Shown here piece after piece: positions 9,291-31,369 of a stretch of DNA of 64,000 bases. The number at the start of each line of letters is the position of its first letter. Position 1 is the first letter of the stretch. The stretch comes from an uncultured delta proteobacterium (GTDB lineage Bacteria > Desulfobacterota > Binatia > Bin18), in assembly GCA_963733195.1 (NCBI GenBank), contig CAVTCR010000057.1:2589-66588 (forward strand), in the 5' to 3' direction. The position numbers and the translations under genes are program-made. The notes under the pieces are model-generated. The model made no database searches, was not told the origin of the DNA, and saw only the letters and a list, made by a program, of their open reading frames with translations.

Positions 9291-9320
9291 TTGACAGATA
9301 CAAAGCAACAGCAGAATATC
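9291..9320 (+). promoter_or_regulatory. sigma70-like promoter of cyclase paralog 1 (TTGACA-N18-AATATC, CAGCAG before the -10)
   Basis: TTGACA at 9291-9296, 18-nt spacer ending CAGCAG, AATATC at 9315-9320. The same architecture sits upstream of the other paralogs. Confidence 0.45.
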
Positions 9321-9341
9321 TCTTCCCAGGAAAGCGAAACG

Positions 9342-11769
9342 ATGCCCACACACACCACGTCGGGTGGCATGGAACGCAAACTGGCCGCCATCTTTAGCAC
9401 GGATGTCGCAGGCTACAGCCGCCTCATGGGCGACGATGAAGAAGCAACCATCCGCACCCTCACAGCCTATCGCGACTGTGATCTCCTCCCTCATCCAGCA
9501 CATCGTGGCCGAGTGGTCGATTCCCCGGTGATAATCTGCTGGCCGAGTTCGCCAGTGTGGTCGATGCCGTGCGCTGCGCGGTCGAAATCCAACACGCACT
9601 CAAAGTGAAGAATGCCGAGTTGCCTGAACATCGGCAAGATGCAGTTTCGCATCGGCATCAACCTGGGCGATGTGATCGTCGAAGGCGAGCGGCTCTACGG
9701 CGATGGGGTCAACATCGCCGCGCGACTGGAAAGCTTAGCGATCCCGGCGGTATCTGTATCTCTGGGACGGTCTACGACCATGTCGAGAACAAACTTGCGC
9801 TGAACTACGAGTATCAGGGCGAGCAGACGGTCAAGAACATCGCCAAGCCGGTGCGAACGTATCGGGTAGTGATGGATGAAGCCGCAGCGGCCCTGGCCGA
9901 GCAAGCCGTGCTTCGACAAGCTCAGCACCGTAGCCCAGATGAAGCGCAGCGGAATCTCGGAAACACACCGGGTCCTGGATTGCGCTCCGCTCCATCCAGG
10001 CTACTTCCTGTGCCCGCGATGGGACATGTGGCAGGGCTGCTGCTCATCGCGGCAGCAATCGTAACCGTATGGTATATTTCTCGTTCCCCACTCAGTCCTC
10101 AGTCCTCAGCACTCAGTCCTGACGCCGCGCCAGCGGCGCTGCCGCTCCCCGACAAACCCTCCATCGTCGTCCTGCCCTTCGACAACATGAGTAAAGATCC
10201 CGCGCAGGACTACTTCAGCAACGGTATCACCGAAGTGCTCACCTCTGACCTCTCCCGCATCTCCAGCCTCTTCGTCATCGCCCGCAACACGGCCTTCACG
10301 TACCAGGGGAAAGCGGTGAATATCCAAGCCGTGGGGAAAGAACTGGGCGTACGGTACGTCCTGGAAGGCAGCGTCCAGAAGGCGGGGGAGCAAATCCGGA
10401 TCGTGACCCAGTTAATTGATACCACGACCGGCGGGCACCTGTGGTCGCAGCGCTACGACCGTCCGCTGCAAGACCTCTTCGCGCTCCAAGATGAGATCGT
10501 GCAGAAGATCGTGACCACGCTGAAGCTGCAGCTCACGTTGCAAGAGCAAGGGTACGTCGTGCGCAAACACACCGACAACCTGGAGGCCTACGATGCCTTC
10601 TTGCGCGGGCTGGAGTATCATTTACCGCTTCACGAAAGAGGCCAATGCCCAGGCGACGGCAGCTGTTTGAGAAAGCCATTGCGCTGGACCCACAGTATGC
10701 GGAGGCGTACGCGTTGCTGGGTTAGACCTACTGGATAGAGTGGGTCTTTCGCTGGAGCGCGGACCCCCAGACCATGGAGCGTGCGTTGGCGCTCGCGCAA
10801 CAGGCTCTTGCCCTGAATGATTCCCTGCCGACAGCCCATTCGCTCTTGAGCATCGTCTATGCCCAGAAACAGCAGTATGACCAAGCTATAGCCGAGGGCG
10901 AACGGGCGGTCGCTCTCGATCCCAACTATGCGGACAGCTATGCCGTACAGGCGGAGGTGCTGAACTTCGCGGGCCGGCCAGAGGAGGCTCTGCAGTCAGT
11001 GGAGCAGGCGATGCGGCTCAACCCCCGCTGTCCACCCTGGTACTTATACTAGGTTGGGCTTGGCCTACCGCATGACCGGGCGGTATGCCGAGGCGATCGC
11101 CACGCTGAAGGAAGTCATCAGCCGGGACCCCAATTTTATCTATGCCCACCTTCAGCTGGCTGGCAGCTACCTATGGCAGTGGATCGCTCAACAGAGCCCA
11201 GCTGCCCAGACGTTGGAGCCGGCAGTGGCGGCGGGGCAACGGGCCCTGGCCCTCAATGACTCCCTCCACTGGAACCACATAGTCTTGGGCTCTATCTATC
11301 TCTACCAACAGCAGTATGACCAGGCCCTGGCGGAGATGGAGCGGGCCGTGGCCCTCGCTCCTACTGAGGCGGGGAGCTATGCGGCTCTGGCGGAGGTGCT
11401 GAGCTATATGGGCAGGACGGAGGACGCCCTGGAGGCCGCCGCACAGGCGCTGCGCCTGAAGCCCATTATTGTGGACGCCCACTTAGACAGCGTCGGCGCT
11501 GCCTATGCCGTGGCCGGGCGGCCACGAAGAGGCGACTTGCCCCCTTGCAGCGTTATATCAGCCGCTATCCCAACATACTGCGCTGCCCATCTCATGCTGG
11601 CAGCGGTCTACAGCGAGTTAGGCAAAGAGCCGAGGCGCGAGCCGAGGTCGCAGAAGTGCTGCGGCTCAATCCTAAGTTCTCACTGGAGGTTCACAAGAGA
11701 GAATGCCGATCAAAGATCCAGCGGTGTTGGAGCGGCATATTGCGGCGTTGCGCAAGGCAGGACTCAAAT
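9342..11769 (+). pseudogene. Cyclase family paralog 1: class III nucleotidyl cyclase - TM - TolB-N-like periplasmic region - TPR; multiple frameshifts
   Basis: ORFs 9198..9608, 9557..10738, 10774..11052 and 11054..11815 are in different frames. Motifs: MERKLAAIFSTDVAGYSRLMGDDEEATIRTL; LPLPDKPSIVVLPFDNMS...YFSNGITE...RYVLEGSVQKAGEQIRIVTQLIDTTTGGHLWSQRYDRPL; TPR repeats. Ends at the conserved ...RKAGLK stop. Confidence 0.7.
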
Positions 11770-11770
11770 A

Positions 11771-11990
11771 ATGGAGAGTGGAGAATTGAAAATTAAGAAT
11801 GGGGAAACAAGCTGAAGGCTGAAGGCTGGAGGGGGAAATGAAGAGAGATGAAGGGAAAACGAAGAATTAAAAGTGATAAAGAATGAATGCGGAATGATGA
11901 ATACATTAGTAGTCAGTAGGCTCAGAATGCTGAATTATGAATGCAGAATGATGAGTGAAAGAAAAACTCGTGATCTTCCATTCATCGTTC
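11771..11990. repeat. GA-rich repeat block with an internal inverted copy (hairpin-capable)
   Basis: GAATGAATGCGGAATGATGAATAC ... TTCCATTCATCGTTCATCATT are inverted partners. GGCTGAAGGCTGGAGG units are also present. Confidence 0.5.
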
Positions 11991-12093
11991 ATCATTTATC
12001 GTTCAGCGTTTTTTGCCATGCTGGCTACTGTGTTCTCATTACGTTTTACGGCTCCGTTAGCCCTTAGCGCTCAGTTATGAGAGGCAGGAGAGA

Positions 12094-13884
12094 ATGGAAG
12101 AGCGTGTACTGCGGATCAGCTACGGAGTTCTCGTCAGACCCGTGGCCGGTTTTTTCTTGTTGGGCGTTCTTGGGTGGAGTGAACCACTATGGGTTGGCGC
12201 AGAAACCCGGCACGAGCAGTTGCCTGCTTACACCATTGCTTTTTCCTCGCTAGCCCCCTGGGACCTAGACGTGTTCATAGCCAACGCAGACGGCTCCGAA
12301 CCCCAGCCGCTCGCGTCACATCCAGACCTCGACTATAACGCTGCCTTCTCACCGGACGGACAGTGGATCGTCTTTACCTCGCACCGTGACGGTAATGCGG
12401 ACCTGTATCGGGTTCACCCCGACGGTAGCGACCTCCAGCGGCTCACGGATCATCCGGCCTTTGATGATGCCGCTGCCTTCTCCTCTGATGGGAACAGGAT
12501 CGCGTTTGTCTCCAGCCGCTCGGGGCAGGCTGACCTCTGGGTGCTGGAGGTAGAGGGTGGGAAAATCTGGAACGTCACTAACGCGCGAGGCGGAGACTTT
12601 CGTCCCGCCTGGTCTCCAGATGGTCAATGGCTCGCCTTCTCTTCCAACCGTGGCTCATCCTGGGATCAGAGCGAGATTTATATCATTCGACCCGATGGAA
12701 CCGAGCTGCGCCGCTTAACTGTTGCGCCTGGCTGGGACGGGAGTCCCATCTGGTCACCAGATGGTGCACGGGTGGCGTATTATTCTGAGCAGGACGGGAA
12801 TGCACAGATCTTTACGGTGGGGATCGAGAACGAGGCTTCTCCCCGAAGAGTAACAAAGAGTTCTTTTCCTACGCTCTCGCCGTACTGGATAGCGAAGGGA
12901 CGGCTGTGCTTTTCCCGCGCAGGGAGCGAGGGCGCACTTGGCTGTGTCGATCCTGATCAGAAGGAAGAGAACGCCATACAGTTGACCACCCGAGGCGAAT
13001 TTCTCTCCCCCAAATGGTCTCGGGATGGAAAACACGTGGTGTTTCATCGTCCGATCAACCGTCCCGCGCCAACTGTCCGCGAGCGGCGCAGTCCGGTGCC
13101 CGAAGTTCGTCTCCTGCGCATCGAGGGCGTATTTCCCTCGTTTGCGCCGACTGGTGACACGTTGAGCTTCACCGCCAATTTCCGCTCCATCGAACGCATG
13201 CGGCGTGACGGATCGGACCGACATGAGGTCTACCGAGATCCCCAGAGCCCCGCGTTTTTCCCCGCCTGGTCCCCGGTGGGCGACGTGATTGCGTTCACCA
13301 GAGGGCGAGTGTTTGCGGGTGCCAGCACGGATAACGAACTGTATGTGGTGCGGTCCGATGGCGCCCACCCACGAAACATCACCCAACACCCGGCGAACGA
13401 CGCACTGCCCAGTTGGTCCCCTGATGGCCAACGGCTAGTCTTTCGTTCGACCCGCGACGGGGACAAGGAGTTGTATGTGATCGGCATCGACGGCTCAGGG
13501 CTGACCCGCCTAACCATCTCGCCGGGCACCGACACGTTTCCTCACTGGTCTCCTGTGGGCGACCGCATTGTCTTTGCCAGTGACCGCACTGGGGACTTTG
13601 AGATCTACACCATGCGGCCCGATGGTGGCGATGTCCGACAACTGACCCACTCACCAGGGTTCGATATGCATCCGGTGTGGTCACCTGATGGCAAGTGGAT
13701 CTGCTTCACCAGCATGCGTGGTGGCTTGAAAGACGAGCATCCTCTCACTGGCAATCCGCAACCGTATGGGGACCTCTATCTCATGCGACCGGACGGCTCA
13801 GAGGTACAGGCGCTCACTGACGACCAGTTTGAAGATGGCACACCCGGTTGGGCGTCGCTGCTGCACGTCCCTGCGGCAGACTGA
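12094..13884 (+). CDS. Secreted PD40/TolB-like beta-propeller repeat protein
   Basis: 596 aa. N-terminal hydrophobic signal/anchor, then many PD40-type repeats (SPDGQWIVFTSHRDGNADLY; SWSPDGQRLVFRSTRDG...). Confidence 0.8.
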   Translation: MEERVLRISYGVLVRPVAGFFLLGVLGWSEPLWVGAETRHEQLPAYTIAFSSLAPWDLDVFIANADGSEPQPLASHPDLDYNAAFSPDGQWIVFTSHRDGNADLYRVHPDGSDLQRLTDHPAFDDAAAFSSDGNRIAFVSSRSGQADLWVLEVEGGKIWNVTNARGGDFRPAWSPDGQWLAFSSNRGSSWDQSEIYIIRPDGTELRRLTVAPGWDGSPIWSPDGARVAYYSEQDGNAQIFTVGIENEASPRRVTKSSFPTLSPYWIAKGRLCFSRAGSEGALGCVDPDQKEENAIQLTTRGEFLSPKWSRDGKHVVFHRPINRPAPTVRERRSPVPEVRLLRIEGVFPSFAPTGDTLSFTANFRSIERMRRDGSDRHEVYRDPQSPAFFPAWSPVGDVIAFTRGRVFAGASTDNELYVVRSDGAHPRNITQHPANDALPSWSPDGQRLVFRSTRDGDKELYVIGIDGSGLTRLTISPGTDTFPHWSPVGDRIVFASDRTGDFEIYTMRPDGGDVRQLTHSPGFDMHPVWSPDGKWICFTSMRGGLKDEHPLTGNPQPYGDLYLMRPDGSEVQALTDDQFEDGTPGWASLLHVPAAD

Positions 13885-13894
13885 CGGAGGAATA

Positions 13895-13960
13895 GAAAGA
13901 TAGGCTAAAGGCTGAAGGGAAAGGAAATAAAGAAGGGAAAATGATGATAACTACTCAGCC
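13895..13960. repeat. GA-rich repeat copy
   Basis: GGCTAAAGGCTGAAGGGAAAGGAAATAAAGAAGGGAAAATGATGATAACTACTCAGCC. Same family as 8462-8545. Confidence 0.45.
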
Positions 13961-13993
13961 GCAGAGCGGCGAATGTAGGAAGACTGGCAGCAT

Positions 13994-14023
13994 TTGACAA
14001 ACACGAGGAGCCAGCAGGATAAT
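13994..14023 (+). promoter_or_regulatory. Orphan copy of the cyclase-family promoter (TTGACA-N18-GATAAT) with no gene behind it
   Basis: TTGACA 13994-13999, spacer ending CAGCAG, GATAAT 14018-14023, then ATCGCCGC as in the other copies. An inverted-repeat-flanked element follows immediately. Confidence 0.4.
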
Positions 14024-14042
14024 CGCCGCTGGGGAAGTAGGT

Positions 14043-14268
14043 GTCATTGCGAGTTGTCCATAGCGCTGACGCTAAGCCTTCAAGTAAAAACGGGACACAT
14101 GCTCGTCCCCAGGCTCTGCCTGGGGACGGAATGAGACGGAGTCTCCTGACTACTGCCGTTCCAGGCAGAGCCTGGGACGGAGGACTGAAGATTTGTTTCT
14201 GAGCAGCGCAGCGAAGCAATCTTTGCCGAAAAGAGATTGCTTCGTCGCCTGCGGCTCCTCGCAATGAC
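14043..14268. mobile_element. MITE-like composite element: 11-bp terminal inverted repeats enclosing a REP hairpin pair and a 12-bp-stem hairpin
   Basis: GTCATTGCGAG (14043-14053) and CTCGCAATGAC (14258-14268) are inverted repeats. Inside are REP hairpins at 14106-14126 and 14159-14178, plus GCGAAGCAATCT...AGATTGCTTCGC. Confidence 0.45.
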
Positions 14269-14373
14269 AGGCCCCTGCATCTTCGCATGAAGTCAGGTAG
14301 TTATTAGATTTCTGATCCTTATGGGGAGAATGAGGAAGCAACCCTTCGCAAGAGCTAAGCGACGAGGGCAGGG

Positions 14374-15420
14374 ATGTTACGGATTGCACAGATTACTAGT
14401 GTTTCGATCGCCGTGCCGCCTAGCACCCACGGCGGGACCGAACGCATGGTCTATCAACTCATCGAGGGCCTAGTACGGCGCGGCCATGCGGTCGAACTCT
14501 TTGCCTCTGGTGACTCACGGGTGTCCTGCCCGGTGCGCAGCGTGACACCGACAGCCCTTCTCGATCGCCCGGACTGGTCCACATACCTGGAGCGAGAATA
14601 TGAGGCCATGAACGCCTTTCAGCTTTTCCGCCAGGCCGAGCGCTTTGATCTGATCCACGGTCACTGGCCGTGCCTGGCCCCCTACTTTTCCCCCTTCACG
14701 CAGACCCCCATGATCCTTACCTACCACTACATTTCGCCCGAGTTGCTTGAGTTCTATGAAAGGAGCTTTCCGCGTTGTCGCGGCGTTTTTGTCAGTCACA
14801 CGCAGGCCGTCGGGCTCGACCGCCCGCATGGCCGGGTGATTCACAACGCCGTGCGTGGGGAAGATATCCCCTACGGGAGCGGCTCCGAGGACCGGCTGAT
14901 CGTTGTTGCCCGTATGGTGCCGCGCAAGGGCATCGCCGAGGCGATCCGTATTGCCCGTCATGCCGACAAACCGCTGCTAGTGATTGCGCCGGTTATGTAC
15001 AACCTGGCCGAGAGCCCAGTCTACTTTCGTGATGTGGTCGCACCATTAATCGACGGCAAAGAGGTCCGCTACATTCCAGCTCTGTCCAACGACCTCGCCT
15101 TGCGAGAGGTTGGACGTTCGCGAGCCTTTCTGTTTCCGTTGCAGTGGGAGGAGCCGTTTGGTCTCGCGGTGCTGGAGGCCATGGCGACTGGAACGCCGGT
15201 GATTACCTACCGACGCGGGGGTATGCTGGAGTTGGTGGAAGATGGGGTCACGGGGTTCCTGGTGAACAACGAAGACGAGATGATTGCAGCGATTCGTGAG
15301 GTCGGCAAAATTGATCGGCAACGCTGCCGCGAGCGCACCCTGGCCCGCTTCAGCGTCGAGCGCATGGTGAAGGCGTATGAGCAATTCTACTACGAAATTC
15401 TGGCTGACCACCGTACCTGA
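14374..15420 (+). CDS. GT4-family glycosyltransferase (group 1)
   Basis: 348 aa. C-terminal EPFGLAVLEAMATGTPVI...GGMLELVEDGVTGFLV is the GT-B/GT4 donor-binding signature. Confidence 0.85.
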   Translation: MLRIAQITSVSIAVPPSTHGGTERMVYQLIEGLVRRGHAVELFASGDSRVSCPVRSVTPTALLDRPDWSTYLEREYEAMNAFQLFRQAERFDLIHGHWPCLAPYFSPFTQTPMILTYHYISPELLEFYERSFPRCRGVFVSHTQAVGLDRPHGRVIHNAVRGEDIPYGSGSEDRLIVVARMVPRKGIAEAIRIARHADKPLLVIAPVMYNLAESPVYFRDVVAPLIDGKEVRYIPALSNDLALREVGRSRAFLFPLQWEEPFGLAVLEAMATGTPVITYRRGGMLELVEDGVTGFLVNNEDEMIAAIREVGKIDRQRCRERTLARFSVERMVKAYEQFYYEILADHRT

Positions 15421-16399
15421 AGTGCAGCCAGAATGGAATGAAGAGCGGTTTCGCCAGGCCTGTTCGTATTGGCAGAGCAGAATCCTGCTCACTGCTCTGC
15501 GCCTGGACCTCTTCACCGTGCTGGCGGATCAGGCCCTCGGCGCGGCAACCCTCGCCGCACGACTCGGCGCGGCAGAGCGGGGGCTCACCGCTCTGCTTGA
15601 CGCGTTGGTCGCCCTCGGGCTGCTGACAAAGCAGGACCACTGCTACGCGAATACCCCTTTTGCTCGCACTGCCCTGGATCGCACCAAGCCCTCTTTTTGC
15701 GGCTATACGCCGCTCTTCGACGCTCACTGCTGGGAGTTATGGAGTAAGCTGGAAGACACGGTTCGCGGGGGTTTCTGCCCGACTCACGACACCGTCTTTC
15801 ACGCGGACCCGGTCGGCACTGAGCTGCTGCTGCGCGGCTTACACACCGATGCGCTGCGCCTGGCTCCAGCCCTCGCCGCACGTCTTGACCTGGGACGGCA
15901 TCGACACATGCTCGACCTCGGCGGCGGCGCTGGTACGTATGCCATCACTTTTTGTCAGATTCAGCCGGAGCTGCACGCGGTGATTTTTGACCTGCCCGGG
16001 CCGTTGACCCTCGCCTCTCAGTTGGTTTCTGCTGCCGGGCTTACAGACCGCATTAGGCTGGTCGTGGGAGACTTCCGCACCGCTCCCCTGCCGCGCGGAT
16101 TTGACCTGGCGCTCCTCTCCAACATCCTGCACGGCCAGAGCGCGGAAACGAATCAACAGCTCCTGACTGCTGTCTTCGCGGCCCTGGAACCCGGGGGAGA
16201 GCTGGTCCTGCGCGACGTTCTCATGAACGAGGACTGCACCACTCCCGTGTTTGGCGCGCTCTTTGCGGTCAATCTGTTACTGCACAGCCCTGCGGGTCGC
16301 TGTTACACGTATAGCGAGGTCCATAGCTGGCTTACGGCGGCAGGTTTCCATAACCTGGAAGTGCTTGAGACCAACGCCGTTCTGCGAGCCTTCAAGTAG
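15377..16399 (+). CDS. Class I SAM-dependent O-methyltransferase (family 2, with N-terminal dimerisation domain)
   Basis: LDLGGGAGTYAI motif I, dimerisation-like N-terminus. The true start may be the in-frame GTG at 15422 immediately after the GT4 stop, which would avoid a 44-nt overlap. Confidence 0.8.
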   Translation: MSNSTTKFWLTTVPEVQPEWNEERFRQACSYWQSRILLTALRLDLFTVLADQALGAATLAARLGAAERGLTALLDALVALGLLTKQDHCYANTPFARTALDRTKPSFCGYTPLFDAHCWELWSKLEDTVRGGFCPTHDTVFHADPVGTELLLRGLHTDALRLAPALAARLDLGRHRHMLDLGGGAGTYAITFCQIQPELHAVIFDLPGPLTLASQLVSAAGLTDRIRLVVGDFRTAPLPRGFDLALLSNILHGQSAETNQQLLTAVFAALEPGGELVLRDVLMNEDCTTPVFGALFAVNLLLHSPAGRCYTYSEVHSWLTAAGFHNLEVLETNAVLRAFK

Positions 16400-16406
16400 G
16401 TGAGGT

Positions 16407-16730
16407 ATGGCACGTTTTGTGAAAGTCGCAAAAGTCGAGGAAATTCCTCCGGGGCAGGGCAAGCAGGTGATAGCGCACGAGAAGCCTATGGCCCTGTTTA
16501 ATGTTGACGGCGTCTTTTATGCCGTTAACCAGATCTGCCCGCATATGGGTGGTCCCCTGTCCGAGGGGACCCTCACCGGCACGGTTGTCCGCTGTCCCTG
16601 GCACGGCTGGACCTACTGTGTGGACACCGGCTTACCCGACCATCCTGGCGGACACTCGGTGGCGGCCTACGAGGTGCGGGTGGAGGGGGACGACATTTTG
16701 GTGGGCTGGCTGAAACGAGCTAGGCGATAG
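16407..16730 (+). CDS. Small Rieske [2Fe-2S] ferredoxin-like protein (NirD-like)
   Basis: 107 aa. CPHMGGPL ... CPWHGW Rieske ligands. Confidence 0.85.
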   Translation: MARFVKVAKVEEIPPGQGKQVIAHEKPMALFNVDGVFYAVNQICPHMGGPLSEGTLTGTVVRCPWHGWTYCVDTGLPDHPGGHSVAAYEVRVEGDDILVGWLKRARR

Positions 16731-16796
16731 GCTGTAGGCTACAGGCTATAGGGTTCTGAAGGCTGACAGCATATCACCTAACTTTGACCTTGTGGC

Positions 16797-16863
16797 TCAG
16801 GCTCTGCCTGGGCACGCACTGCCTGGTAGGTTCCGTTACTCTTGTGCCCAGGCAGAGCCTGGT
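16797..16863. repeat. REP hairpin pair (CTCAGGCTCTGCCTGGGCAC / GTGCCCAGGCAGAGCCTGG)
   Basis: Two imperfect palindromes in inverted orientation, about 30 nt apart. Same family as the RAYT-flanking REPs. Confidence 0.6.
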
Positions 16864-20640: not shown

Positions 20641-20670
20641 TTGACATCCACTCCACTCTGGCAGGATAAT
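20641..20670 (+). promoter_or_regulatory. sigma70-like promoter of cyclase paralog 2 (TTGACA-N18-GATAAT)
   Basis: TTGACA 20641-20646, spacer ending CAGCAG, GATAAT 20665-20670, AAGGATAAG ribosome-binding site (RBS), ATG at 20692. Confidence 0.5.
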
Positions 20671-20691: not shown

Positions 20692-22637
20692 ATGGAGCGC
20701 AAACTCACTGCCATTCTCAGTGCCGATGTCAAAGGCTACAGCCGCCTCATGGGCGAGGATGAGGAGGCCACCATCCGCACCCTCACGGCCTATCGGCGAA
20801 GTGATGACTACGCTGATCCAGCCAGCATCGCGGCCGGGTCGTCGACTCGCCCGGCGATAACATGCTGGCCGAGTTCGCCAGCGTGGTGGATGCCGTGCAA
20901 TGCGCAGTCGAAATCCAACAAGACGCTCAAAGTCAGAAAATGCGGAGTTGCCGACCGATCGCAAGATGGAGTTTCGCATCGGCATCAACTTGGGCGATGT
21001 GCTTAGTCGAGGGCGAGCGGCTCTATGGGGACGGGGTCAACATCGCCGCACGGTTAGAAGGCTTAGCCGAGCCGGGCGGCATTTGCATCTCGGGCACGGT
21101 GCACGAACAAGTCAAGAACAAGCTGGCCTTGCAGCTACGAAGATCTGGGCGAACAGCAGGTCAAGAACATCGCCGAGCCGGTGCGGGTGTGGCGGGTACG
21201 ATGGGAGACGGCAATCAAAGGCAGAGGACTCGGCAAATCAAAAGGCAAAAGGCACAAGGGCAAAAGACAGAAAAAGTTGTCAGTCGTCAGTTCTCAGTTG
21301 TCAGTCCCCAGCCCCCACGCCGAAGCCGAATCGCACTGATTATCATAGGACTTCTCATTGCTGTCGGGGTCTTGGCCTTCTCGTTTCTTTCCCCATTCAT
21401 CACTCATCATTCATCACTCATCACTCAGGAGGCGCAGCCTCCGTCGCTGCCCTTGCCCGACAAACCCTCCATCGTCGTGCTGCCCTTCGTCAACATGAGC
21501 GAAGATCCCAAGCAGGAGTATTTCAGCGACGGGCTCACCGAGGACCTCACCTCCGCTCTCTCGAAGATCTCCAGCCTGTTCGTCATCGCTCGCAACTCGG
21601 CCTTCACCTACAAAGGCAAAGCGGTGAAAGTGCAAGACGTGAGCAAGGAGTTGGGCGTGCGGTATGTGCTGGAAGGCAGTGTGCGCAAGGCTGACAACCA
21701 GGTGCGGATCACGGCGCAGTTGATCGATGCCACCACCGGCGGTCACTTGTGGTCCGAGCGTTACGACCGCCCCCTACAGGACATCTTTGCCCTGCAAGAT
21801 GAGGTCGTACAGAAGATCGTGACGACGCTGAAACTCCAGCTCACGTTGCAGGAGCAAGGGATTCTGGTGCGCAAGACCACGGACAACCTGGAGGCCTATG
21901 ACTACTACTTGCGCGGGAGGGAGCATTTTAATCGCTTCACGCAAGAGGCCAATGCGCAGGCCCGGCAGATGTTTGAGAAAGCCCTTGAGCTGGACCCACA
22001 GTATGCGGAGGCGTACGCCTTCCTGGGTTGGACCTACTTTAGGGAGTGGGGCTTGCAATGGAGTCAGGACCCCCAGACCCTGGAGCAGGCGTTTGCGCTG
22101 GCGCAAAAGGCCGTGGCCCTGGATGACTCCCTACCCCAGGCCCACGTGGTATTGGGCGCTGTCTATCTGTGGAAAAAGCAGCATGACCAGGCCATCGCCG
22201 AGGCAGAGCGGGCCATTGCCCTCGATCCCAACTATCGCTGAGGCTATGCGTGGCTGGGGGAGATCTGAACTGTGCGGGGCGGCCGGAGGAAGCCATCGGG
22301 TTGATAGAGAAGGCGATGCGCCTCAACCCCCATTATCCGCCTTTCTACTTATTCTTCTTAGGCGAGGCCTACCGCTTGACGGGGCGGTATGAGGAGGCGA
22401 TTGCAGCTTACAAGAGAGCCCTCACCCGCAACCCCGATTTTCTGCCTGCCCACCTTACCTGGCTGCCATCTACAGTGAGTTGGGCCGGGAGGAGGAGGCC
22501 CGGGCGGAGGTGGCAGAAGTCCTGCGGATCAAGTCCCAAGTTCTCTCTGGAGGTTTTGAGGCAGAGGCTCGCCCTATAAAGATCCAGCGGTATTAGAGCG
22601 CATTCTTGCCGCCCTGCGCAAGGCGGGGCTGAAGTAA
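20692..22637 (+). pseudogene. Cyclase family paralog 2: class III cyclase - TM - TolB-N-like - TPR; frameshifted in the cyclase domain and the C-terminal TPR
   Basis: ORFs 20692..21006, 20862..22241 and 22250..22579. MERKLTAILSADVKGYSRLMGEDEEATIRTL. TM plus LPLPDKPSIVVLPFVNMSEDPKQEYFSDGLTEDL...RYVLEGSVRKADNQVRITAQLIDATTGGHLWSERYDRPL. Conserved ...LAALRKAGLK stop. Confidence 0.7.
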
Positions 22638-22765
22638 ATGAAGAATGAAAAATGGAGAGTGAAGACTGGGAAGAGAGGCTTAAGGCTGAAGGCTAAAGGG
22701 AGGAGGAAATGAAGAATGAAGAGTAAGAAGAGAGGAATGAGTACTGAGTGACGAGAGACAGGATA
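22638..22765. repeat. GA-rich repeat copy
   Basis: ATGAAGAATGAAAAATGGAGAGTGAAGACTGGGAAGAGAGGCTTAAGGCTGAAGGCTAAAGGG...GGAATGAGTACTGAGTGA. Confidence 0.5.
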
Positions 22766-23255: not shown

Positions 23256-24106
23256 AAGTTACCCTGTGGGGCACTCGTGGCTCGGTGGCAGCACCGGGCG
23301 CAGAAACGGCACGATATGGCGGTAACACTGCCTGTGTGGAGGTGCGTGGGGCGGACGACACTGTGCTCATTCTTGATGCCGGCACCGGTATCCGCCGGCT
23401 GGGCACCACGCTCTCGCCCTCTGTACGGCGAGTGAACATTTTGTTGACCCACTTACATATGGATCACCTCCAAGGGTTAGGGTTCTTTGCTCCTTTGTAT
23501 AACCCCGCGGTCGAAGTCCACATCTGGGGACCAGCGAGTCCAACCCTCAGTCTCGAGAAACGCTTGATGCGCTACCTCTCCCCCCCGCTCTTTCCCGTGC
23601 GGCTGCGGGAGTTGCCCTGCCGTTTGTTCCTGCATGAAGTGCCCTGCAAGGACTTTGACGTTGGAGAGTTTCATATCTCTTCTTCCCTTATCTGCCACCC
23701 TGGCCCCACCGTCGGCTACCGGATTACGACGGCTCGTGCCAAGTTCGCCTACCTTACCGATCACGAGCCGACACTTGGGGTACCGAGGTTTCCCTTGGCT
23801 AGTGAGTGGACTTCCGGGTACGCCCTTGCAGCCAATGTGAACCTGCTTATCCATGATGCTCAGTACAGTAACAAGGAATACACCAATTGTGTTGGTTGGG
23901 GTCATAGTACCATGCAGGACGCTATTGCCTTCGCTGCCCTCGCTGCTGCGAAACACTTGGTACTGTTCCACCATGATCCTACTCACACAGATGAGGATCT
24001 CGATCGGCTGACCGCTGAGGCGATAGCTGTAGCGCAGCCTACCTTTCCTGTCACGTTGGGTGCAGAAGGCGCCGTGTTCGACTTGGGCTTTACAGACCGG
24101 GAATAA
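23252..24106 (+). CDS. MBL-fold metallo-hydrolase (HxHxDH = THLHMDH), possible phosphodiesterase
   Basis: Start is the ATG at 23252 after GGAGGTAGAAAA; the listed ORF 23138.. is an N-terminal over-extension. MKVTLWGTRGS...ILDAGTGI...LLTHLHMDHLQGL...GWGHS is the MBL signature. Confidence 0.8.
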   Translation: MKVTLWGTRGSVAAPGAETARYGGNTACVEVRGADDTVLILDAGTGIRRLGTTLSPSVRRVNILLTHLHMDHLQGLGFFAPLYNPAVEVHIWGPASPTLSLEKRLMRYLSPPLFPVRLRELPCRLFLHEVPCKDFDVGEFHISSSLICHPGPTVGYRITTARAKFAYLTDHEPTLGVPRFPLASEWTSGYALAANVNLLIHDAQYSNKEYTNCVGWGHSTMQDAIAFAALAAAKHLVLFHHDPTHTDEDLDRLTAEAIAVAQPTFPVTLGAEGAVFDLGFTDRE

Positions 24107-24107
24107 T

Positions 24108-24215
24108 GATGAATGAAAAATGAAGAGGGAAGAATAGGAAGGTAGGCTGAAGGCTGAAGGGGGAGGAAATGAAGAATGAAAAATGAAAGTGCAGAGGGAT
24201 GAGTAACCATTAGTT
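24108..24215. repeat. GA-rich repeat copy
   Basis: GATGAATGAAAAATGAAGAGGGAAGAATAGGAAGGTAGGCTGAAGGCTGAAGGGGGAGGAAATGAAGAATGAAAAATGAAAG. Confidence 0.5.
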
Positions 24216-24817: not shown

Positions 24818-24856
24818 GCGGATAGGGGTATACCTATGTCACGTGTTCCGCTTTCG

Positions 24857-25774
24857 TCACTCAAGCCCCTCACGGAGCGGCACGTACGGCACACGCTCGG
24901 ACCACGGACGGTAGGAGTCGGCGTTCTCGCTCGTGATCAGGCGTCCGAGGGGAGCCAGGGCAAGTGCCCCTTCAAGCTGCTCGCCGTTGACCAGTACGCG
25001 TGAGACCAGTTCACCGACGGCAGCACCAATCTCGGTAATGTCGATATCCCATGTCCCGTGAGTGCGACCTGCCCGTACTGCTGCGACCGCTTGCGGACTG
25101 CCATTGCGTGACACCAACTTCATCTCTCCAGCGCGTCCCGCCTCGTCGATCGCCTCCAGTGTCCCCAACATGGTTTCATCGTTAAAGGGAATCAAGCCGT
25201 CCAGATGGGCGAAGTCCGCCAACACTCGACGCGCGGCCTCTCGTCCGCCTTCTTTGACATCCTCCCGGTTGCGGTGCCGATCGACAAAAGGATCGTTGAC
25301 GAGTTTGAGACCACTGCGTTGGACCCCATGGACAATACCAAGTACCAGTTCGATATCGTCGATCACCTCCGGACCGCCGATCACCGCCACGTCTGCCTGC
25401 GGGGGCAGGAGCGAGGCCAGGTACTCGGCCATGTACACGCCATGATTAAAATTCGGATACACCAACGACGCGTTGACCGGATATTGTGGTCGTTCCAAGG
25501 TGAACACAGGAATCCCGTGCTGTCGTGCGGCGGTAACTGCTTGCGCGGGTTGCGTTGGGTCCAGGACGTAGACGACAATTCCGTCTACCCCTGCATCAAT
25601 GCCGCGCTGGATTGCCGCGGTTTGCTTTTCGACCCAATCGGGCGAGCGTACGTCGGTCGTCAGCGTCCGTAGTTCAATCCCGGCTTGGCGTAGACGGTGA
25701 TCGAGGCCATGCGCCAGAGCATCAATTCCAGGGTGCGCACCGTACGGAAGGACATTGACATATAAGACTCGCAT
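24857..25774 (-). CDS. Type I periplasmic-binding-protein-fold (RbsB-like) sugar-binding domain protein without signal peptide
   Basis: 305 aa, RbsB-like pattern (...IPFNDETMLGTLEAIDEAGRAGEMKLVSRNGSPQAVAAVRAG...). N-terminus MRVLYVNVLPYG is not a signal peptide. Confidence 0.55.
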   Translation of the reverse strand: MRVLYVNVLPYGAHPGIDALAHGLDHRLRQAGIELRTLTTDVRSPDWVEKQTAAIQRGIDAGVDGIVVYVLDPTQPAQAVTAARQHGIPVFTLERPQYPVNASLVYPNFNHGVYMAEYLASLLPPQADVAVIGGPEVIDDIELVLGIVHGVQRSGLKLVNDPFVDRHRNREDVKEGGREAARRVLADFAHLDGLIPFNDETMLGTLEAIDEAGRAGEMKLVSRNGSPQAVAAVRAGRTHGTWDIDITEIGAAVGELVSRVLVNGEQLEGALALAPLGRLITSENADSYRPWSERVPYVPLREGLE

Positions 25775-25795
25775 ACTTTTCTTCCTTTGTTGACG

Positions 25796-26746
25796 TCAGA
25801 GCCCGATGGTGAGCGGCAACCACTGCACCCGTTCTGACCACGGACGCCAGGTGTGCAGATTGTCCAGCGTAATCATCCGTCCTACTGGGCTCATTACCAG
25901 AAACTCTTCGTATTGTTCTCTCTTTGTGAGGTGTCGCACGATTACCTCTCCCAGCGTGGTCCCGATGCCGGAGGCATCCAGATCCCAGGTGCCAGCGATC
26001 TTGCCTTGCCGAACGGCTTCAACCGCGGCTGGTGAACCATTGCGACAAACAATTTTCATCTCCTTGGCTCGCCCAGCCTCTTCGACGCATGCGAGTGCGC
26101 CATGCATGGTTTCATCATTGTATGGAATCAGTCCATCAATACGTGGGAACTCCGCGAGCAGCCGCGACATCGGTTCCCGTGCGCCAACCGCAATATCGGT
26201 GAGATTGCAGTACTGTGGCTGGGTCGGGTCATTGAGTAACTTACAGTGACTCTGCTGTAGAGCAAACACCAACCCGGCCACTTCTTCGGCATCGTCTACC
26301 GAGTGTGGTCCGCCAATGACGGCCACACCGCTGTTTGGAGCCAGGAGCGAGACGAGATGTTCAGCCATGAAAACACCCTGATTGAAGTTCGGATAGATCA
26401 CCGAGGCATTAACCGGGTAGTGCGGACGAACGAAGGTGAAGACTGGAATGCCAGCCGCACGAGCCTTGGCTACGGGTTCACGGAAAGCGGACGGGGTAAT
26501 GACGTAGATGACGATGGCATCAACTCGGGCAGTGATTCCTGCTGCAATCGCGTCTTCATATTGACGACGATAATCTGGAGCAGTGAAATCGGCAAAGAGC
26601 ACACGGAGTTCGATCTCTGCCGCATGAAGAGAATGTTGGAGCCCGTAGGCAATAGCATCAATGGCCGGATTTCCACCCAGCGCGAGCGGATTGATATAGA
26701 GTACACGCATGGCCATAAGCTCCTTCCTTTTCTTACGTCGCCACAA
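25796..26746 (-). CDS. Paralog of the preceding PBP-fold protein (tandem duplicate)
   Basis: 316 aa, roughly half identical to 24857..25774 (MRVLYINPLALGG...IPYNDETMHGALACVEEAGRAKEMKIVCRNGSPAAVEAVRQG). True start is probably the MAMRVL/MRVL Met near 26713. Confidence 0.55.
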   Translation of the reverse strand: MWRRKKRKELMAMRVLYINPLALGGNPAIDAIAYGLQHSLHAAEIELRVLFADFTAPDYRRQYEDAIAAGITARVDAIVIYVITPSAFREPVAKARAAGIPVFTFVRPHYPVNASVIYPNFNQGVFMAEHLVSLLAPNSGVAVIGGPHSVDDAEEVAGLVFALQQSHCKLLNDPTQPQYCNLTDIAVGAREPMSRLLAEFPRIDGLIPYNDETMHGALACVEEAGRAKEMKIVCRNGSPAAVEAVRQGKIAGTWDLDASGIGTTLGEVIVRHLTKREQYEEFLVMSPVGRMITLDNLHTWRPWSERVQWLPLTIGL

Positions 26747-26805
26747 ACTCCACCCGTAGCGGAGTACAGGTCGGGTGATTCAGTCGCTTACCGTCAATTT
26801 CTTGA

Positions 26806-27339
26806 TCAAACGGACACGCCGAGATGGCGACGAGACAATCCATCAAAGCTTTCAGGGCAATATACTCCCCCGCCTGGCCGCGGCGGGCTGGTAATTAATC
26901 GTGCCGTCCGCCTTCGGTCGCGTATTTTGAAACAGATTGACTGGGTCGGGATATCGAGATACCCCAGTCCATACGGAGTGACTGCCTGTGTGAGATTATC
27001 GCGGCAGTTGCGATGTGTCGGATCGCCCGCCGTGGCGGCATAGAGGGCGCTGCTGCACGGAGCAAACTGCAAATCATGCACGCCCTTGGCCAAATCTTCG
27101 ACAATCTCAAACATGGGGTTTTGCAGATTGGAGTAGAACTTACTCCCGACCGTCAAGTGGATGGAGCCGCTCCCTGCCAGGGAGTTGAAGTTCACGGTCT
27201 CACCCGTGGAGAGTTTCTCCCGCGGTTGATGCAGGTTGAAACAAACGAAGTCACCGATCTGGTGTCCCTCGACGTCAATGACCTTGATCGTCTCACCCCG
27301 TCGGACTACAAACGCAGCTCCTTCAGTAGCGGGAATCAC
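26806..27339 (-). CDS. DUF1989-like (urea-carboxylase-associated family) protein, C-terminus possibly disrupted
   Basis: FVVRRGETIKVIDVEGHQIGDFVCFN...EKLSTGET pattern. The C-terminal 40 aa are low-complexity and look out of frame. Confidence 0.5.
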   Translation of the reverse strand: MIPATEGAAFVVRRGETIKVIDVEGHQIGDFVCFNLHQPREKLSTGETVNFNSLAGSGSIHLTVGSKFYSNLQNPMFEIVEDLAKGVHDLQFAPCSSALYAATAGDPTHRNCRDNLTQAVTPYGLGYLDIPTQSICFKIRDRRRTARLITSPPRPGGGVYCPESFDGLSRRHLGVSV

Positions 27340-27410
27340 TAGATGTTGTTCTCTCGGGCATGGTACTGTCCTCCTCTGGCGTTTCTATGGGCGATGCTTC
27401 TGGATCCCTC

Positions 27411-27486
27411 GTGCTCAGGCTCTGCCTGGGCACGAGAAGACGTCATTCGACACTTTTTCCCTCGGTCCTAGGCTCTGCCTAGGACC
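27411..27486. repeat. REP hairpin pair downstream of the RAYT gene
   Basis: GTGCTCAGGCTCTGCCTGGGCACG (27411-27434) and GGTCCTAGGCTCTGCCTAGGACC (27464-27486). Each is an imperfect palindrome. Confidence 0.65.
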
Positions 27487-27522
27487 GCACTGTCTGACGG
27501 TCTCTTTTCACCTTTTGCCTCA

Positions 27523-28056
27523 TTACCAATCTGTCACTACGTCGATCAGTCCTTTTTCTCCCGCGTACGTCCGCGCGCTGGAGTAACGCCAATGTACGGG
27601 GTCATCCACGTAGCCACGTCGTACCGGGTTTGCGTGCATATACTCCAGCTTCTGTCTCATCATTTCCTCGTTCTGGATCTGTTGAGGATGACTTCCCTCT
27701 TGCCAGAGTTGAAATGTCTGGTCGGTCTTATGGCGCAGTTTGAAAAACCGGAGTTCTTCACGCAATGTAGAGAACCCTTCTTGTGCGAGTCTATCAATGA
27801 TCCGGCGCGCGGTGTAGGACTTGAATCGGCCTACGTACTCGGAGAGACCGTCCGCCGCGGCAATCCAATGCAGGTGGTTCTCGAGAATCACGTACCCGAA
27901 GATGCGCACCCCTCGTTCCCGCTGAAGGAACCGCCACGACTCTAAGACGATCTCGACACATTGCGGATGGGCGAAGACCGGAAGCCACGCGACTACGGTG
28001 CAGGTGAGAAAATACGGGGACTCTTCTGTGAAGATGCGGTAGCGGGTACGTGACAT
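27523..28056 (-). CDS. REP-associated tyrosine transposase (RAYT; IS200/IS605-like Y1 HUH transposase)
   Basis: 177 aa. HUH motif (ILENHLHWIAA) and catalytic Tyr region (HWRYSSARTY). Flanked on both sides by REP hairpin pairs. Confidence 0.8.
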   Translation of the reverse strand: MSRTRYRIFTEESPYFLTCTVVAWLPVFAHPQCVEIVLESWRFLQRERGVRIFGYVILENHLHWIAAADGLSEYVGRFKSYTARRIIDRLAQEGFSTLREELRFFKLRHKTDQTFQLWQEGSHPQQIQNEEMMRQKLEYMHANPVRRGYVDDPVHWRYSSARTYAGEKGLIDVVTDW

Positions 28057-28079
28057 CGGGTGTATTTCCTAGCGAGGCA

Positions 28080-28173
28080 GAGCTTAGCAAACATTGCGCT
28101 CCCAGGCGGAGCCTGGGAACGAGATGAACGAGAGGAATCACTGGTGGAGGCAAGTGACTACTACCTTTGTTCC
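28080..28173. repeat. REP hairpin pair upstream of the RAYT gene
   Basis: GCTCCCAGGCGGAGCCTGGGAACG (28080-28103) and GTTCCCAGGCTCAGCCTGAGAAC (28151-28173). Confidence 0.65.
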
Positions 28174-28209
28174 CAGGCTCAGCCTGAGAACAAGATGATA
28201 TAGTGACGG

Positions 28210-28239
28210 TTGACAGCTCGGCAACACCAGCAGAATAAT
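28210..28239 (+). promoter_or_regulatory. sigma70-like promoter of cyclase paralog 3 (TTGACA-N18-AATAAT)
   Basis: TTGACA 28210-28215, spacer ending CAGCAG, AATAAT 28234-28239. ATG at 28277. Confidence 0.45.
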
Positions 28240-28276
28240 CCAGATCTATGCAGGACAACCCCACCAGCAAGAGGGT

Positions 28277-30273
28277 ATGAAGGTGCCTACGCATACATCG
28301 GTTGGCATGGAACGCAAGCTCGCGGCGATCTTCAGCACCGATGTCGCGGGTTACAGTCGCCTCATGGGCGACGATGAAGAAGCCACCATCCGCACCCTTA
28401 CTGCCTATCGTACACTGATTTCCTCCCTGATCCAGCAGTACCGTGGCCGGGTGGTCGATGCGCCCGGCGATAACCTGCTGGCCGAGTTTGCCAGTGTGGT
28501 CGATGCCGTGCGCTGTGCGGTCGAGATCCAACACGCACTTAAAGAGAAGAACGCCGAGCTACCTGAGCATCGCCAGATGCAGTTTCGCATCGGCATCAAC
28601 TTGGGCGATGTGATTGTCGAGGGCGAACGACTTTATGGTGATGGCGTCAACATCGCCGCGCGGCTGGAAAGTCTAGCGACCCCGGGCGGCATTTGTATCT
28701 CAGGGACGGTGTATGACCAGGTCGAGAACAAACTGGTGCTGAACTACGAATATCAGGGCGAGCAGACGGTCAAGAACATCGCCAAGCCGGTGCGGGTGTT
28801 TCGCATCCTGCTAGAGTCCGATGCTGCTTCCTCAGACAATCAAGCCGTGCTTCGACACGCTCAGCACGAACGGACACCGACTCCGGTCACCCTGAGTCCT
28901 TCGACAAGCTTCGAGGACAGGCTTTATCGAAGGGTGCTCAACTGAAACGCAAGGGGGGACTGTTGCTGGCTGGGCTGCTGCTCATCGTGGCAACAATCGT
29001 AGCAGTCCGGTATTTTTCTCGTCCACCTCTCAGTCCTCAGCCCTCAGTACTCGTCACTGAGGAGGCGAAGCCTCCGTCGCTTCCCTTGCCCGACAAACCC
29101 TCCCTCGTCGTGCTGCCCTTCGTCAACATGAGCGGAGACCCCAAGCAGGACTATTTCAGCGATGGCATCACTGAAGACCTCACCACGGCCCTCTCGCAAA
29201 TTTCCAGTCTGTTCGTCATCGCCCGCAACTCCGCCTTCACCTACAAGGGCAAAGCCGTCAAGGTGCAGGACGTCGGGCAGAGAACTGGGCGTGCAGTACG
29301 TGTTGGAAGGCAGCGTGCGCAAAGCCAACGACCAGGTGCGGATCACCGCGCAGTTGATCGATGCGGCGACAGAGTCTCACCTCTGGGCGCAGCGGTATGA
29401 CCGTCCACTGAAGGACATCTTTGCCCTGCAAGACGAGATCGTGCAGAAGATCGTGACGACGTTGAAGCTGCAGCTCACCTTGCGGGAGCAAGGGTACCTG
29501 GTGCGCAAGACCACGGACAACCTGGAGGCCTATGATGCTACTTGCGTGGGCTGGAGGCATGGAACCGCTACACGAAAGAGACCAATGCCCAGGCCCGGCA
29601 GCTGTTTGAGAAAGCGATTGCGCTGGACCCGCAGTATGCCGAGGCGTACGCGAGGCTGAGTCGAACACTCTCCACGGAGTGGGTCTATGGCAATGGAGTC
29701 AGGATCCTCAGACGCTGGAGCGCGCGTTGGTCCTGGCGCAACAGGCCGTTGCCTTGGATGACTCCTTGCCTGGAGCCCATGAGGTATTGGCTTTTGCCTA
29801 TCCCTATAAAAAACAACATGAGCAAGCCATTGCGGCAGCCAAGCGGGCCATTGCTCTTGCTCCCAATGACGCGGAGGGCTATGCGAATTTGGGGCACATT
29901 TTGATCTTTGCCGGGCAGCCAGAGGAAGCCATTGAGCTTGATCGAGAAGGCGATGCGCCTCAACCCCCGCTATCCGTTCCACTACTTATCCTTGCTCGGC
30001 ATGGCCTATGTCTTGGCGAGGCGGTATGAGGAAGCGCTCGCAGTCCTGCAGAGCGCCACCTCTCCGCAACCCCAATTTTCTGCCTCCTCATCTTCATTTG
30101 CTTGTCAGCTATAGTGAGCTAGGCCGAGATGCGGAGGCCCGAGCTGAGCTGGCAGAACTCCGGCGGCTCAATCCCAATATTCTCTCTGGAGTGGTATAGG
30201 CGGGTGATGCTTCAAAGATCCAGCGGACTTGGAGCGGTATCTTGCCGCCCTGCGCAAGGCGGGGCTGAAATAA
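28277..30273 (+). pseudogene. Cyclase family paralog 3: intact class III cyclase domain ORF (222 aa) followed by frameshifted TM - TolB-N-like - TPR part
   Basis: ORF 28277..28945 has a complete cyclase domain (MERKLAAIFSTDVAGYSRLMGDDEEATIRTL...GDGVNIAARLESLATPGGICISGTVYDQV). ORFs 28963..29400, 29162..29659, 29679..30029 and 30008..30199 continue the TM/TolB-N-like/TPR part in shifting frames. Conserved ...LAALRKAGLK stop at 30271. Confidence 0.7.
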
Positions 30274-30325
30274 TGGAAAATGGAGAATTAAAAATTAAAA
30301 ATGAAGAATGAGCACTGAGGAAAAA
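30274..30325. repeat. GA-rich repeat copy
   Basis: TGGAAAATGGAGAATTAAAAATTAAAAATGAAGAATGAGCACTGAGG. Confidence 0.45.
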
Positions 30326-30408
30326 CAGAGGTCCTTTTACATTTTACGCTTTGCACCTTTGGTCAGTGGTCAACTGTCAGCTTTCAGTTTGCACGTGACC
30401 CGGAGGCG

Positions 30409-30780
30409 CTAGCTTGTTTGCGCAAGTAAAGTCTCTACCAAAGCCTGTTGTTCTTTTCTTGAAGAAGACCCTATGTGAGCAAGTAAATCATGGGAGAGCC
30501 GCAGGGCTTTTCGCTGCCAATCCACAATAGCGGCGAATTCTTTATCTAATCCTGCCTTGATCGCTTCTGTTGAAGAGATTTCCTGCTTCGTAAGTACAGT
30601 TCGCAGAAAGGTTGTATATCCGCGGACAAAAGCGCCGACGACTCGCCCGGAGTCTGGGTCTCGCCGGATGTATATTCCTGAATCTAGAGGAACTGCCTCC
30701 GCAGGTTGAGGTGCGTCCGCATCAATCAGGAGATCAAGTTCATCGGATTCCGGATCGTATCCAAGGGCCTGGATCTTCAT
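30409..30780 (-). CDS. DUF2283-like small protein (putative antitoxin) with C-terminal extension
   Basis: N-terminal 55 aa (MKIQALGYDPESDELDLLIDA...GIYIRRDPDSGRVVGAFV) fit the DUF2283 pattern. 10-nt gap to the upstream ORF. Confidence 0.4.
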   Translation of the reverse strand: MKIQALGYDPESDELDLLIDADAPQPAEAVPLDSGIYIRRDPDSGRVVGAFVRGYTTFLRTVLTKQEISSTEAIKAGLDKEFAAIVDWQRKALRLSHDLLAHIGSSSRKEQQALVETLLAQTS

Positions 30781-30789
30781 ACTTCGCCT

Positions 30790-31122
30790 TTATTTTCTTT
30801 CATACCAGCAACTTTGATAGAACTTTATCCACTTGTCACCGCTTTGTCGGACATATTTGACACTGACGATGAGGAAATGCCGAGACCATTGATTCAGGCC
30901 AGATACGCGGAGGATACGAAAGTATCTCTGCTCTTCATCAGCTGCCCGATGTTTATCAGACTCGACACTTTCTGCCGCCGTCATGGCTGCCTTCGTGAGT
31001 TCGAGTGCATCTTCGATCTCTGGCCGCTTGGCGACATGTTCTTGCCACTGGCGGCGGCTAATTTGGCATTCAACTCCGTCGCTGTCCTGACCGTTCCACA
31101 AAACATCTAGATTTTCTGCCAC
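30790..31122 (-). CDS. Hypothetical protein, possible toxin partner of the DUF2283-like gene
   Basis: 110 aa, no recognisable motif. Called on gene-pair geometry only. Confidence 0.3.
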   Translation of the reverse strand: MAENLDVLWNGQDSDGVECQISRRQWQEHVAKRPEIEDALELTKAAMTAAESVESDKHRAADEEQRYFRILRVSGLNQWSRHFLIVSVKYVRQSGDKWIKFYQSCWYERK

Positions 31123-31237
31123 GCCTACCCTACGCCTACTGTTAAAGGAATTTCATTATGACTGATCTCTAGCACGGATGGTAGAGTCAAAATTATCAAC
31201 CCTCTGTCTTGCACAGAAATGAGGTTCTCCCCGCCGC

Positions 31238-31369
31238 TTGACGGGCAGACGGGGCCGGCAGGATAATCGCCTGCGGTGAAGGGTACACATGGAACGCGAG
31301 CTCACCGTGATCCTGAGCGTTGATGTCGAACGCTACAATACGCGTAGTGTTCCAAGTAAAATACATTAA
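31238..31369 (+). pseudogene. Remnant of a cyclase family gene: promoter (TTGACG-N18-GATAAT) plus 26-codon N-terminal stub
   Basis: TTGACG 31238-31243, CAGCAG, GATAAT 31262-31267, ATCGCCTGCGGTGAAGG as in paralog 2, then ATGGAACGCGAGCTCACCGTGATCCTGAGCGTTGATGTC (MERELTVILSVDVERY...) ending at a stop after 26 codons. Confidence 0.45.

Follow-up and report, generated by a model that had tools for sequence, protein, structure and literature searches.

Five sites in a 64,000-nucleotide (nt) stretch of DNA from an uncultured delta proteobacterium of the Binatia (contig CAVTCR010000057.1; the whole stretch is referred to here as the window) are, in all likelihood, copies of the core promoter of a single expanded family of adenylate cyclase paralogs, of the housekeeping sigma70 type and inherited with each gene duplicate. 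Each promoter would consist of a −35 element (TTGACA), an 18-bp spacer, a −10 element ((G/A)ATAAT), a GCAG at positions −16 to −13 and a C-rich CGCC discriminator. As we picture it, the promoter would have been carried along with each duplicate of the gene, and purifying selection on the RNA polymerase contacts would have preserved it while the remaining upstream DNA was randomized. Three of the window promoters would now stand before probable pseudogenes; the other two would be left over after deletion of the gene body and may now drive neighboring operons.

We searched the window with the pattern TTGACA-N12-CAGCAGRATAAT, allowing up to three mismatches, and derived the expectation from dinucleotide-preserving shuffles. 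Five matches were obtained versus 0.06 expected, which rules out chance. All lie on the plus strand, with 18 nt between TTGAC(A/G) and the −10 hexamer at each site. The −35 element reads TTGACA in four copies and TTGACG in the fifth (31238–31267). The −10 element is GATAAT in three copies (13994–14023, 20641–20670 and 31238–31267), AATAAT at 28210–28239, and a degenerate AATATC at 9291–9320; A at −11 and T at −7 occur together in the first four of these and not at 9291. Over 60 nt the five copies are 42–60% identical to one another, with spacers 21–50% and upstream flanks 15–40% identical; the sites at 20641 and 31238 have 81 nt in common at 76.5% identity.

A reading of the same DNA made from sequence only had placed the five sites at exactly these coordinates and with this spacing, and both hold up. 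Its finer description needs revision. The degenerate pattern that it gave catches just three of the five sites, and the CAGCAG that it called invariant is present at 9291, 13994 and 28210, with TGGCAG at 20641 and CGGCAG at 31238, leaving only GCAG as invariant. The downstream string ATCGCC.GCGGT(A/G)AAGG, ascribed to three copies, was found in two (at 20669 and 31266); the 13994 copy has ATCGCC in common with them and then diverges. Nothing elsewhere in the whole 64 kb matched TTGAC[AG]-N16-19-[GAT]ATAAT or TTGACA-N16-19-TANAAT, and a search of the window for decayed extra copies with GCAGGATAATCGCC (up to three mismatches) yielded only chance-level matches. One candidate decayed copy, at 4706, was dismissed, having no −35 element. 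Neither a tRNA nor a match to any Rfam family at the gathering score was detected anywhere in the window.

Canonical promoters of the housekeeping sigma factor sigma70 (RpoD) carry TTGACA at −35, a spacer of 17±1 bp and TATAAT at −10. The five sites resemble them in their −35 elements (six of six positions in four copies, five of six in one), in their −10 elements (five of six positions, including A−11 and T−7, in four copies), in a spacer that falls within the 16–19 bp range, in matching 11 of 12 hexamer positions, and in their gene-ward position and orientation. They differ from the consensus in having G or A in place of T at −12, a spacer fixed at 18 rather than 17 bp, GCAG at −16 to −13 where the TG of an extended −10 would sit, a conserved CGCC discriminator and a purine-rich spacer. 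The hexamers and their spacing point to sigma70 as the probable sigma factor.

Self-comparison, tblastn searches and alignments showed every site to be the 5′ end of a member, or of a remnant, of one gene family whose architecture combines a class III adenylate cyclase domain, a TolB_N-like domain and TPR repeats. The repeated unit is therefore the gene with its promoter. The sequence-only reading had raised the possibility that the motif belonged to a larger repeated element unrelated to transcription; a larger repeated unit does exist, but it is the gene itself and hence transcription-related. Three paralogs in the window (9342–11771, 20692–22637 and 28277–30273, all on the plus strand) are 76–80% identical at the DNA level in self-comparison, start 21–37 nt past their promoters and span the full length of the gene, with three to at least five frame changes each. 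The first is full length with at least five frame changes and a stop at 11769–11771, as delineated by tblastn with intact 790-aa homologs and by Pfam matches to TolB_N and TPR. The second has three frame changes, the earliest at about codon 36–44; for both of these copies, the tblastn alignments to intact homologs run across the frameshifts. In the third, the open reading frame (ORF) of the cyclase domain is intact (28277–28945, 222 aa) and the rest is frameshifted; its Guanylate_cyc domain (PF00211), also present in the homologs, was matched by Pfam with E=7e-13. Intact homologs in metagenome-assembled genomes (MAGs) from short reads are 580–793 aa long. The 3′ remnant of a further family member (..FKNPDDLERWLAALRKAGLK*) lies at 8290–8458 on the plus strand and was recognized by its translation and by self-BLAST against 30108–30308 and 22470–22649.

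We consider the three window genes to be probable pseudogenes, because their frameshift density is high (about 2 per kb, far beyond what the many intact 1.5–2.2 kb ORFs of the window allow) and because truncated or internally deleted cyclase copies are present in Illumina assemblies too. Damage to the −10 element is found in front of the most damaged gene copy, the one downstream of 9291, and the 28210 promoter is identical in a syntenic contig (L002) and conserved in L015. Between L002 and the window, flanking DNA is 96–97% identical and the promoter with the cyclase domain is 95–98% identical and gap-free; identity drops to 68–74%, with indels, in the TPR part. The cyclase-only ORF (28277–28945 in the window, gene 3001–3687 in L002) is conserved like the flanking genes, with a strongly diverged TPR part, and each of the 120 proteins nearest to the cyclase domain in the database measures 170–384 aa, even when encoded on contigs of 100–460 kb. 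Judging from these alignments and lengths, a stand-alone cyclase domain may still be functional.

That the promoters are so precise and the genes so decayed had been taken by the sequence-only reading as a sign of recent duplication or of selection on a regulatory element. The contrast calls for no special explanation, because the promoter offers a target of about 16–20 nt versus about 2–2.4 kb for the gene: neutral divergence of a few percent is enough to disrupt a reading frame at several points, and most promoters escape it.

A protein-anchored search of species-representative genomes recovered 79 related loci comprising 417 kb. The closest of them are in MAGs labelled Candidatus Binatia, Deltaproteobacteria or Methylomirabilota, or mislabelled Enterobacteriaceae, and at least 14 of the 79 come from the single MAG CAYTVL01. 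Throughout these loci the pattern TTGA[CT][AG]-N18-[GA]ATAAT occurs 23 times, on each occasion just upstream of a cyclase-family start, and the spacer measures 18 nt in 19 of 21 promoters upstream of cyclase-anchored loci. Conservation extends to positions that the search did not impose. Among 24 non-redundant cyclase-anchored promoters, AAC(g/a) directly precedes the −35 element, positions −16 to −13 hold G (20), C (18), A (16) and G (19), and the bases after the −10 element read C(18).C(19)C(17); these conserved non-hexamer positions are kept in 70–83% of the set. Information is confined to the two hexamers, the GCAG, the C.CC and a few bases before the −35 element; DNA farther upstream than about −8, counted from TTGACA, carries none.

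Scanning metagenome contigs by the motif alone (TTGACA-N14-GCAGGATAATCGCC) picked up 75 matches; the 73 contigs that carry them are mostly from soil. By blastx or an N-terminal signature, 64 of the matches are cyclase starts, and a further five can be seen to be deletion remnants, which end in ..LRKAGLK*, for a total of about 69 of 75 tied to the cyclase. The motif is common to subfamilies that, in the cyclase domain, share only ~45% identity with the window type. The element is therefore both old and family-specific, given that it precedes such divergent subfamilies and that nearly all of its matches lie at cyclase genes. The spacer, with the consensus gcCGcgaGGagCC, is purine-rich (61–69%) and T-poor (5–13%) and recurs in three protein subfamilies. 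With hexamers, GCAG and a C-rich discriminator selectively kept across so large a gene family, the sigma70-type promoter proposed by the sequence-only reading is very probably real. A rare match free of cyclase sequence occurs on the minus strand of contig L136 (192–330), about 100 nt upstream of a gene that by eye looks tRNA-like (ggaatagctcagttggtagagcg).

Expanded families of class III adenylate cyclases are familiar from Sinorhizobium meliloti (~26 members) and Mycobacterium tuberculosis (~16). The present family resembles these in having many paralogs per genome and a Guanylate_cyc domain fused to TPR or other sensor modules. It differs in that many copies are truncated or frameshifted, with at least 14 loci in CAYTVL01, and in that one promoter is conserved family-wide; we know of no description of such a promoter for the rhizobial or mycobacterial cyclase families. 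Our literature searches found nothing on Binatota adenylate cyclases and nothing relevant on cyclase/TPR paralogs in Sinorhizobium.

In a set of 66 non-identical family members, the spacing between the −10 element and the first in-frame ATG is sharply bimodal. It is 6–8 nt in 25 of them, which have no room for a ribosome-binding site, and 18–22 nt in 31, in which an AGGAGG-like Shine-Dalgarno sequence lies between promoter and ATG. Such a distribution would be the signature of a fixed start site shared by leaderless and short-leader genes; it supports a genuine sigma70-type promoter and would locate transcription initiation 7–9 nt past the −10 element. In many members the predicted start coincides with the A of the start codon, which would make the mRNA leaderless. 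All five window copies are leadered, the hexamer-to-ATG distance being 21 nt in three (with ATGs at 9342 and 20692 among them) and 37 nt at 28210; at 13994 it was originally about 19 nt, judging from the ortholog L119. Their leaders would thus measure ~12–15 nt (~28–30 nt at 28210) and include a Shine-Dalgarno sequence. Promoters of leaderless genes, in which the start codon stands at the transcription start, are well described in mycobacteria, Streptomyces and Deinococcus. The 25 family members with a start codon 6–8 nt past the −10 element and without Shine-Dalgarno room resemble these; unlike them, the window copies have leaders, and the two designs occur here within a single family, behind the same promoter.

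The promoters at 13994 and 31238 are orphans, each followed by a stump of 16–30 cyclase codons that ends 15 nt ahead of an unrelated operon (glycosyltransferase/O-methyltransferase at the former, monooxygenase/acyl-CoA-dehydrogenase at the latter). The 13994 promoter is the closest of the copies to the family consensus, GAGGAG spacer included. According to alignments, its leader and the degenerate first part of its stump occupy 14024–14085 on the plus strand, with the ATG changed to ATT and 7 nt deleted. An insertion of 231 nt (14086–14316), containing a REPIN-like hairpin pair, splits this stump from its second part (..LMGENEEATLRKS*-like; 14317–14358, plus strand), whose stop lies 15 nt before the glycosyltransferase ATG at 14374. 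Window positions 12021–16780 have orthologs, 94–97% identical, in L119 and L092, two soil contigs from Illumina assemblies; free of the insertion, these contigs carry the same promoter and then an intact 30-codon stump (MERKLTGIFSADVQIYSRLMGEDEEATLRKK*), again with its stop 15 nt before the glycosyltransferase ATG. At the second orphan, a 26-codon stump ORF (MERELTVILSVDVERY...; 31289–31369, plus strand) stops 15 nt short of the ATG (31385) of a gene for a luciferase-like monooxygenase. This stump block is polymorphic: the syntenic contig L002 is without the stump and without two adjacent small ORFs.

Because both orphans retain 16–30 cyclase codons, their sequences indicate that a gene body was lost, rather than a promoter inserted. 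The 15-nt distance from stump to ATG at both sites suggests promoter capture by deletion, and the orphan promoters may now drive the adjoining operons. In orthologous trios it is the spacer that has taken up substitutions, the hexamers having none; their numbers are too small to show selection on the orphans themselves. Beyond the window we observed recurrent minigenes, in which the promoter and the first 5–13 cyclase codons are fused to the last codons of the gene (..ALRKAGLK*): L019 5880–6410, L090, L096, L097, L104/L154 and L152. On inspection of the sequence, the junction of the L097 minigene falls in GCCGCC, the codons of an Ala-Ala pair found near both ends of the protein, which suggests that minigenes arise by deletion between short repeats.

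Several observations weigh against a plain family of inherited sigma70 promoters. The 9291 copy has C instead of T at −7. Both the start site and the activity of the promoters are inferred. Single-base indels distinguish the window from L002 within ordinary coding genes (at 25063, 26716, 26874, 26947 and 32390) in contigs otherwise 96–97% identical, so that indel errors must be present in one assembly or in both; some of the window frameshifts could accordingly be assembly errors. A second conserved upstream type, without TTGACA-N18-GATAAT, precedes a subset of close homologs (L001, L004, L005, L010 and L012). Finally, the partly conserved, purine-rich and T-poor spacer, the GCAG and the CGCC exceed what a plain sigma70 promoter needs. 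As to the second upstream type itself, its sequence, about 90 nt upstream of the cyclase start, reads ..ctttcctttttgc.cc.tgtgtgattctctgtc.g.tcaa..ggccaggag...

The last of these points is the basis of the alternative that survives best, although we judge it unlikely: that a dedicated transcription factor or specialized sigma factor reads the spacer (gcCGcgaGGagCC), the GCAG and the CGCC, and so co-regulates dozens of cyclase paralogs through a block of about 45 bp that combines the core promoter with a family-wide regulatory site. The putative cis-regulatory module, whose existence we likewise hold to be doubtful, would run from ~5 nt upstream of TTGACA through the purine-rich spacer with its GAGG core to GCAG-GATAAT-CGCC. 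The 70–83% conservation of positions outside the hexamers speaks for it, as does the recurrence of a similar spacer consensus in three subfamilies whose proteins are only ~45% identical. Against this, spacer conservation is weak (0.2–0.9 bit per position) and much weaker still in the cyclase-anchored set, four of the five window spacers are unrelated and off consensus, and the metagenome set was picked by a 20-nt exact match, which enriches close relatives. Moreover, the consensus displayed no dyad or direct-repeat symmetry and no likeness to a known operator, and contacts of sigma regions 3.0 and 1.2 could account for the GCAG and CGCC. Of the regulator binding site that the sequence-only reading had envisaged, then, neither dyad symmetry nor a known motif was seen, and the weakly conserved purine-rich spacer leaves it some room. 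Conservation of the GCAG, CGCC and spacer may reflect such sigma contacts together with tuning of promoter strength, or else a dedicated regulator or sigma factor.

Far less probable is that the motif spreads independently of the gene, as a mobile promoter or as the end of a mobile element. It is true that unrelated operons follow two of the copies, that the syntenic L002 has no 31238 stump block, that recurrent minigenes retain the promoter with the first and last codons, and that REP/RAYT-like elements lie nearby. But the cyclase codons kept by both orphans indicate deletion of a gene body, and ~69 of 75 motif matches are attached to cyclase sequence. Directly behind each of the five window promoters comes homologous cyclase sequence, be it a gene or a stump, and unrelated genes begin only past the two stumps, so the promoters themselves do not lie upstream of non-homologous genes. 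No transposase is associated with the unit, and neither terminal repeats nor target-site duplications were apparent around it in an analysis that included no dedicated search for them. Putative mobile promoters have been defined by 50–100 nt at ≥80% nucleotide identity between copies (Matus-Garcia et al. 2012, PMC3488235), and the 42–60% identity over 60 nt seen here falls short of that. The promoters at 13994 and 31238 are like those described in that study in lying directly before non-homologous operons, an apparent reuse of the family promoter; unlike them, they have only functional positions in common, and the reuse would have come about by deletion of a gene body that left a 16–30-codon stump.

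Recent duplication of a promoter-bearing segment, as the sequence-only reading had suggested, is barely credible. It would explain why hexamers and spacing are identical and why 20641 and 31238 share a longer stretch of similarity, but it is refuted because all but the functional positions have diverged: identity is low over 60 nt, in the spacers and in the upstream flanks, is 76–80% in the coding sequence, and the same promoter precedes divergent subfamilies in many MAGs and soil metagenomes. A sigma54 promoter of the −24/−12 type (TGGCAC-N5-TTGC, with GG at −24 and GC at −12), read from (T/C)GGCAGGATAATCGCC and suggested by TGGCAG-GATAA-TCGC at 20641 and CGGCAG-GATAA-TCGC at 31238, can be set aside with near certainty, as its near-invariant GG is AG in three of the five window copies and 30 of 57 metagenome copies and it leaves a strict TTGACA 18 nt upstream and an ATG 6–8 nt past GATAAT unexplained. 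A FliA-like −10 reading (GCCGATAA versus GCAGGATAA) was dropped, the −35 element being the canonical TTGACA and the register different. We also rejected a general promoter of the organism, because there is no other near-consensus promoter in the window and because the motif matches lie almost all at cyclase genes.

Other elements lie near the repeated gene-and-promoter unit; those that are repetitive extragenic palindromic (REP)-like or RAYT-like adjoin it and are not part of it. A 177-aa ORF on the minus strand (27523–28056, within a block at 27392–28169) has a weak match to an IS200-like Y1 transposase (E=0.003) and is surrounded by REP-like hairpins at 27415, 28100–28120 and 28169–28189 with the core CCAGGC.GAGCCTGG; ORF and hairpins together look like a RAYT with its REP elements. 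This block is wholly absent from L002. REPIN-like inverted pairs of CCAGGCAGAGCCTGG occupy intergenic positions at 14108–14176, 16797–16862, 33816–33960 and 28100–28189, with 21 matches to the sequence versus 0.9 expected. Between the cyclase 3′ remnant and the 9291 promoter, a toxin-antitoxin pair of HepT (PF01934) and an MNT nucleotidyltransferase (PF01909) is encoded on the minus strand (8573–9224), and in a similar position before the 31238 promoter lie two small minus-strand ORFs (30409–31122), neither with a Pfam match. Purine/A-rich stretches of the type aatgaagaatgaaaaatgaagaatg occur at 8459–8498, 13884–13944, 22637–22743, 24105–24205 and 30274–30310 in the window, at L002 5480–5520 and at L019 6400–6480. 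They follow directly upon the stop codons of cyclase copies and also follow unrelated genes, namely a PD40 propeller gene and one of the metallo-beta-lactamase fold, and may constitute a lineage-specific 3′ element.

The history of these promoters is one of ordinary genome evolution, informative but without a new mechanism, and its practical value is modest. If the block were a regulatory module after all, one factor would switch dozens of cyclic AMP-producing sensor proteins together in an uncultured soil lineage, and through leftover copies unrelated operons could become part of that regulon. For the inherited core promoter that we favor, the 34-nt motif provides a specific handle with which the cyclase family and its remnants can be retrieved from soil metagenomes. 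It also permits a sequence-based prediction of start sites in a lineage with neither a cultured member nor transcriptomics; as a further prediction, leaderless translation should exist side by side with the leadered kind behind a single promoter. Lastly, the two orphans would represent natural cases in which deletion of a gene left the promoter of its family 15 nt upstream of an unrelated operon, making promoter capture a testable proposition in these bacteria.

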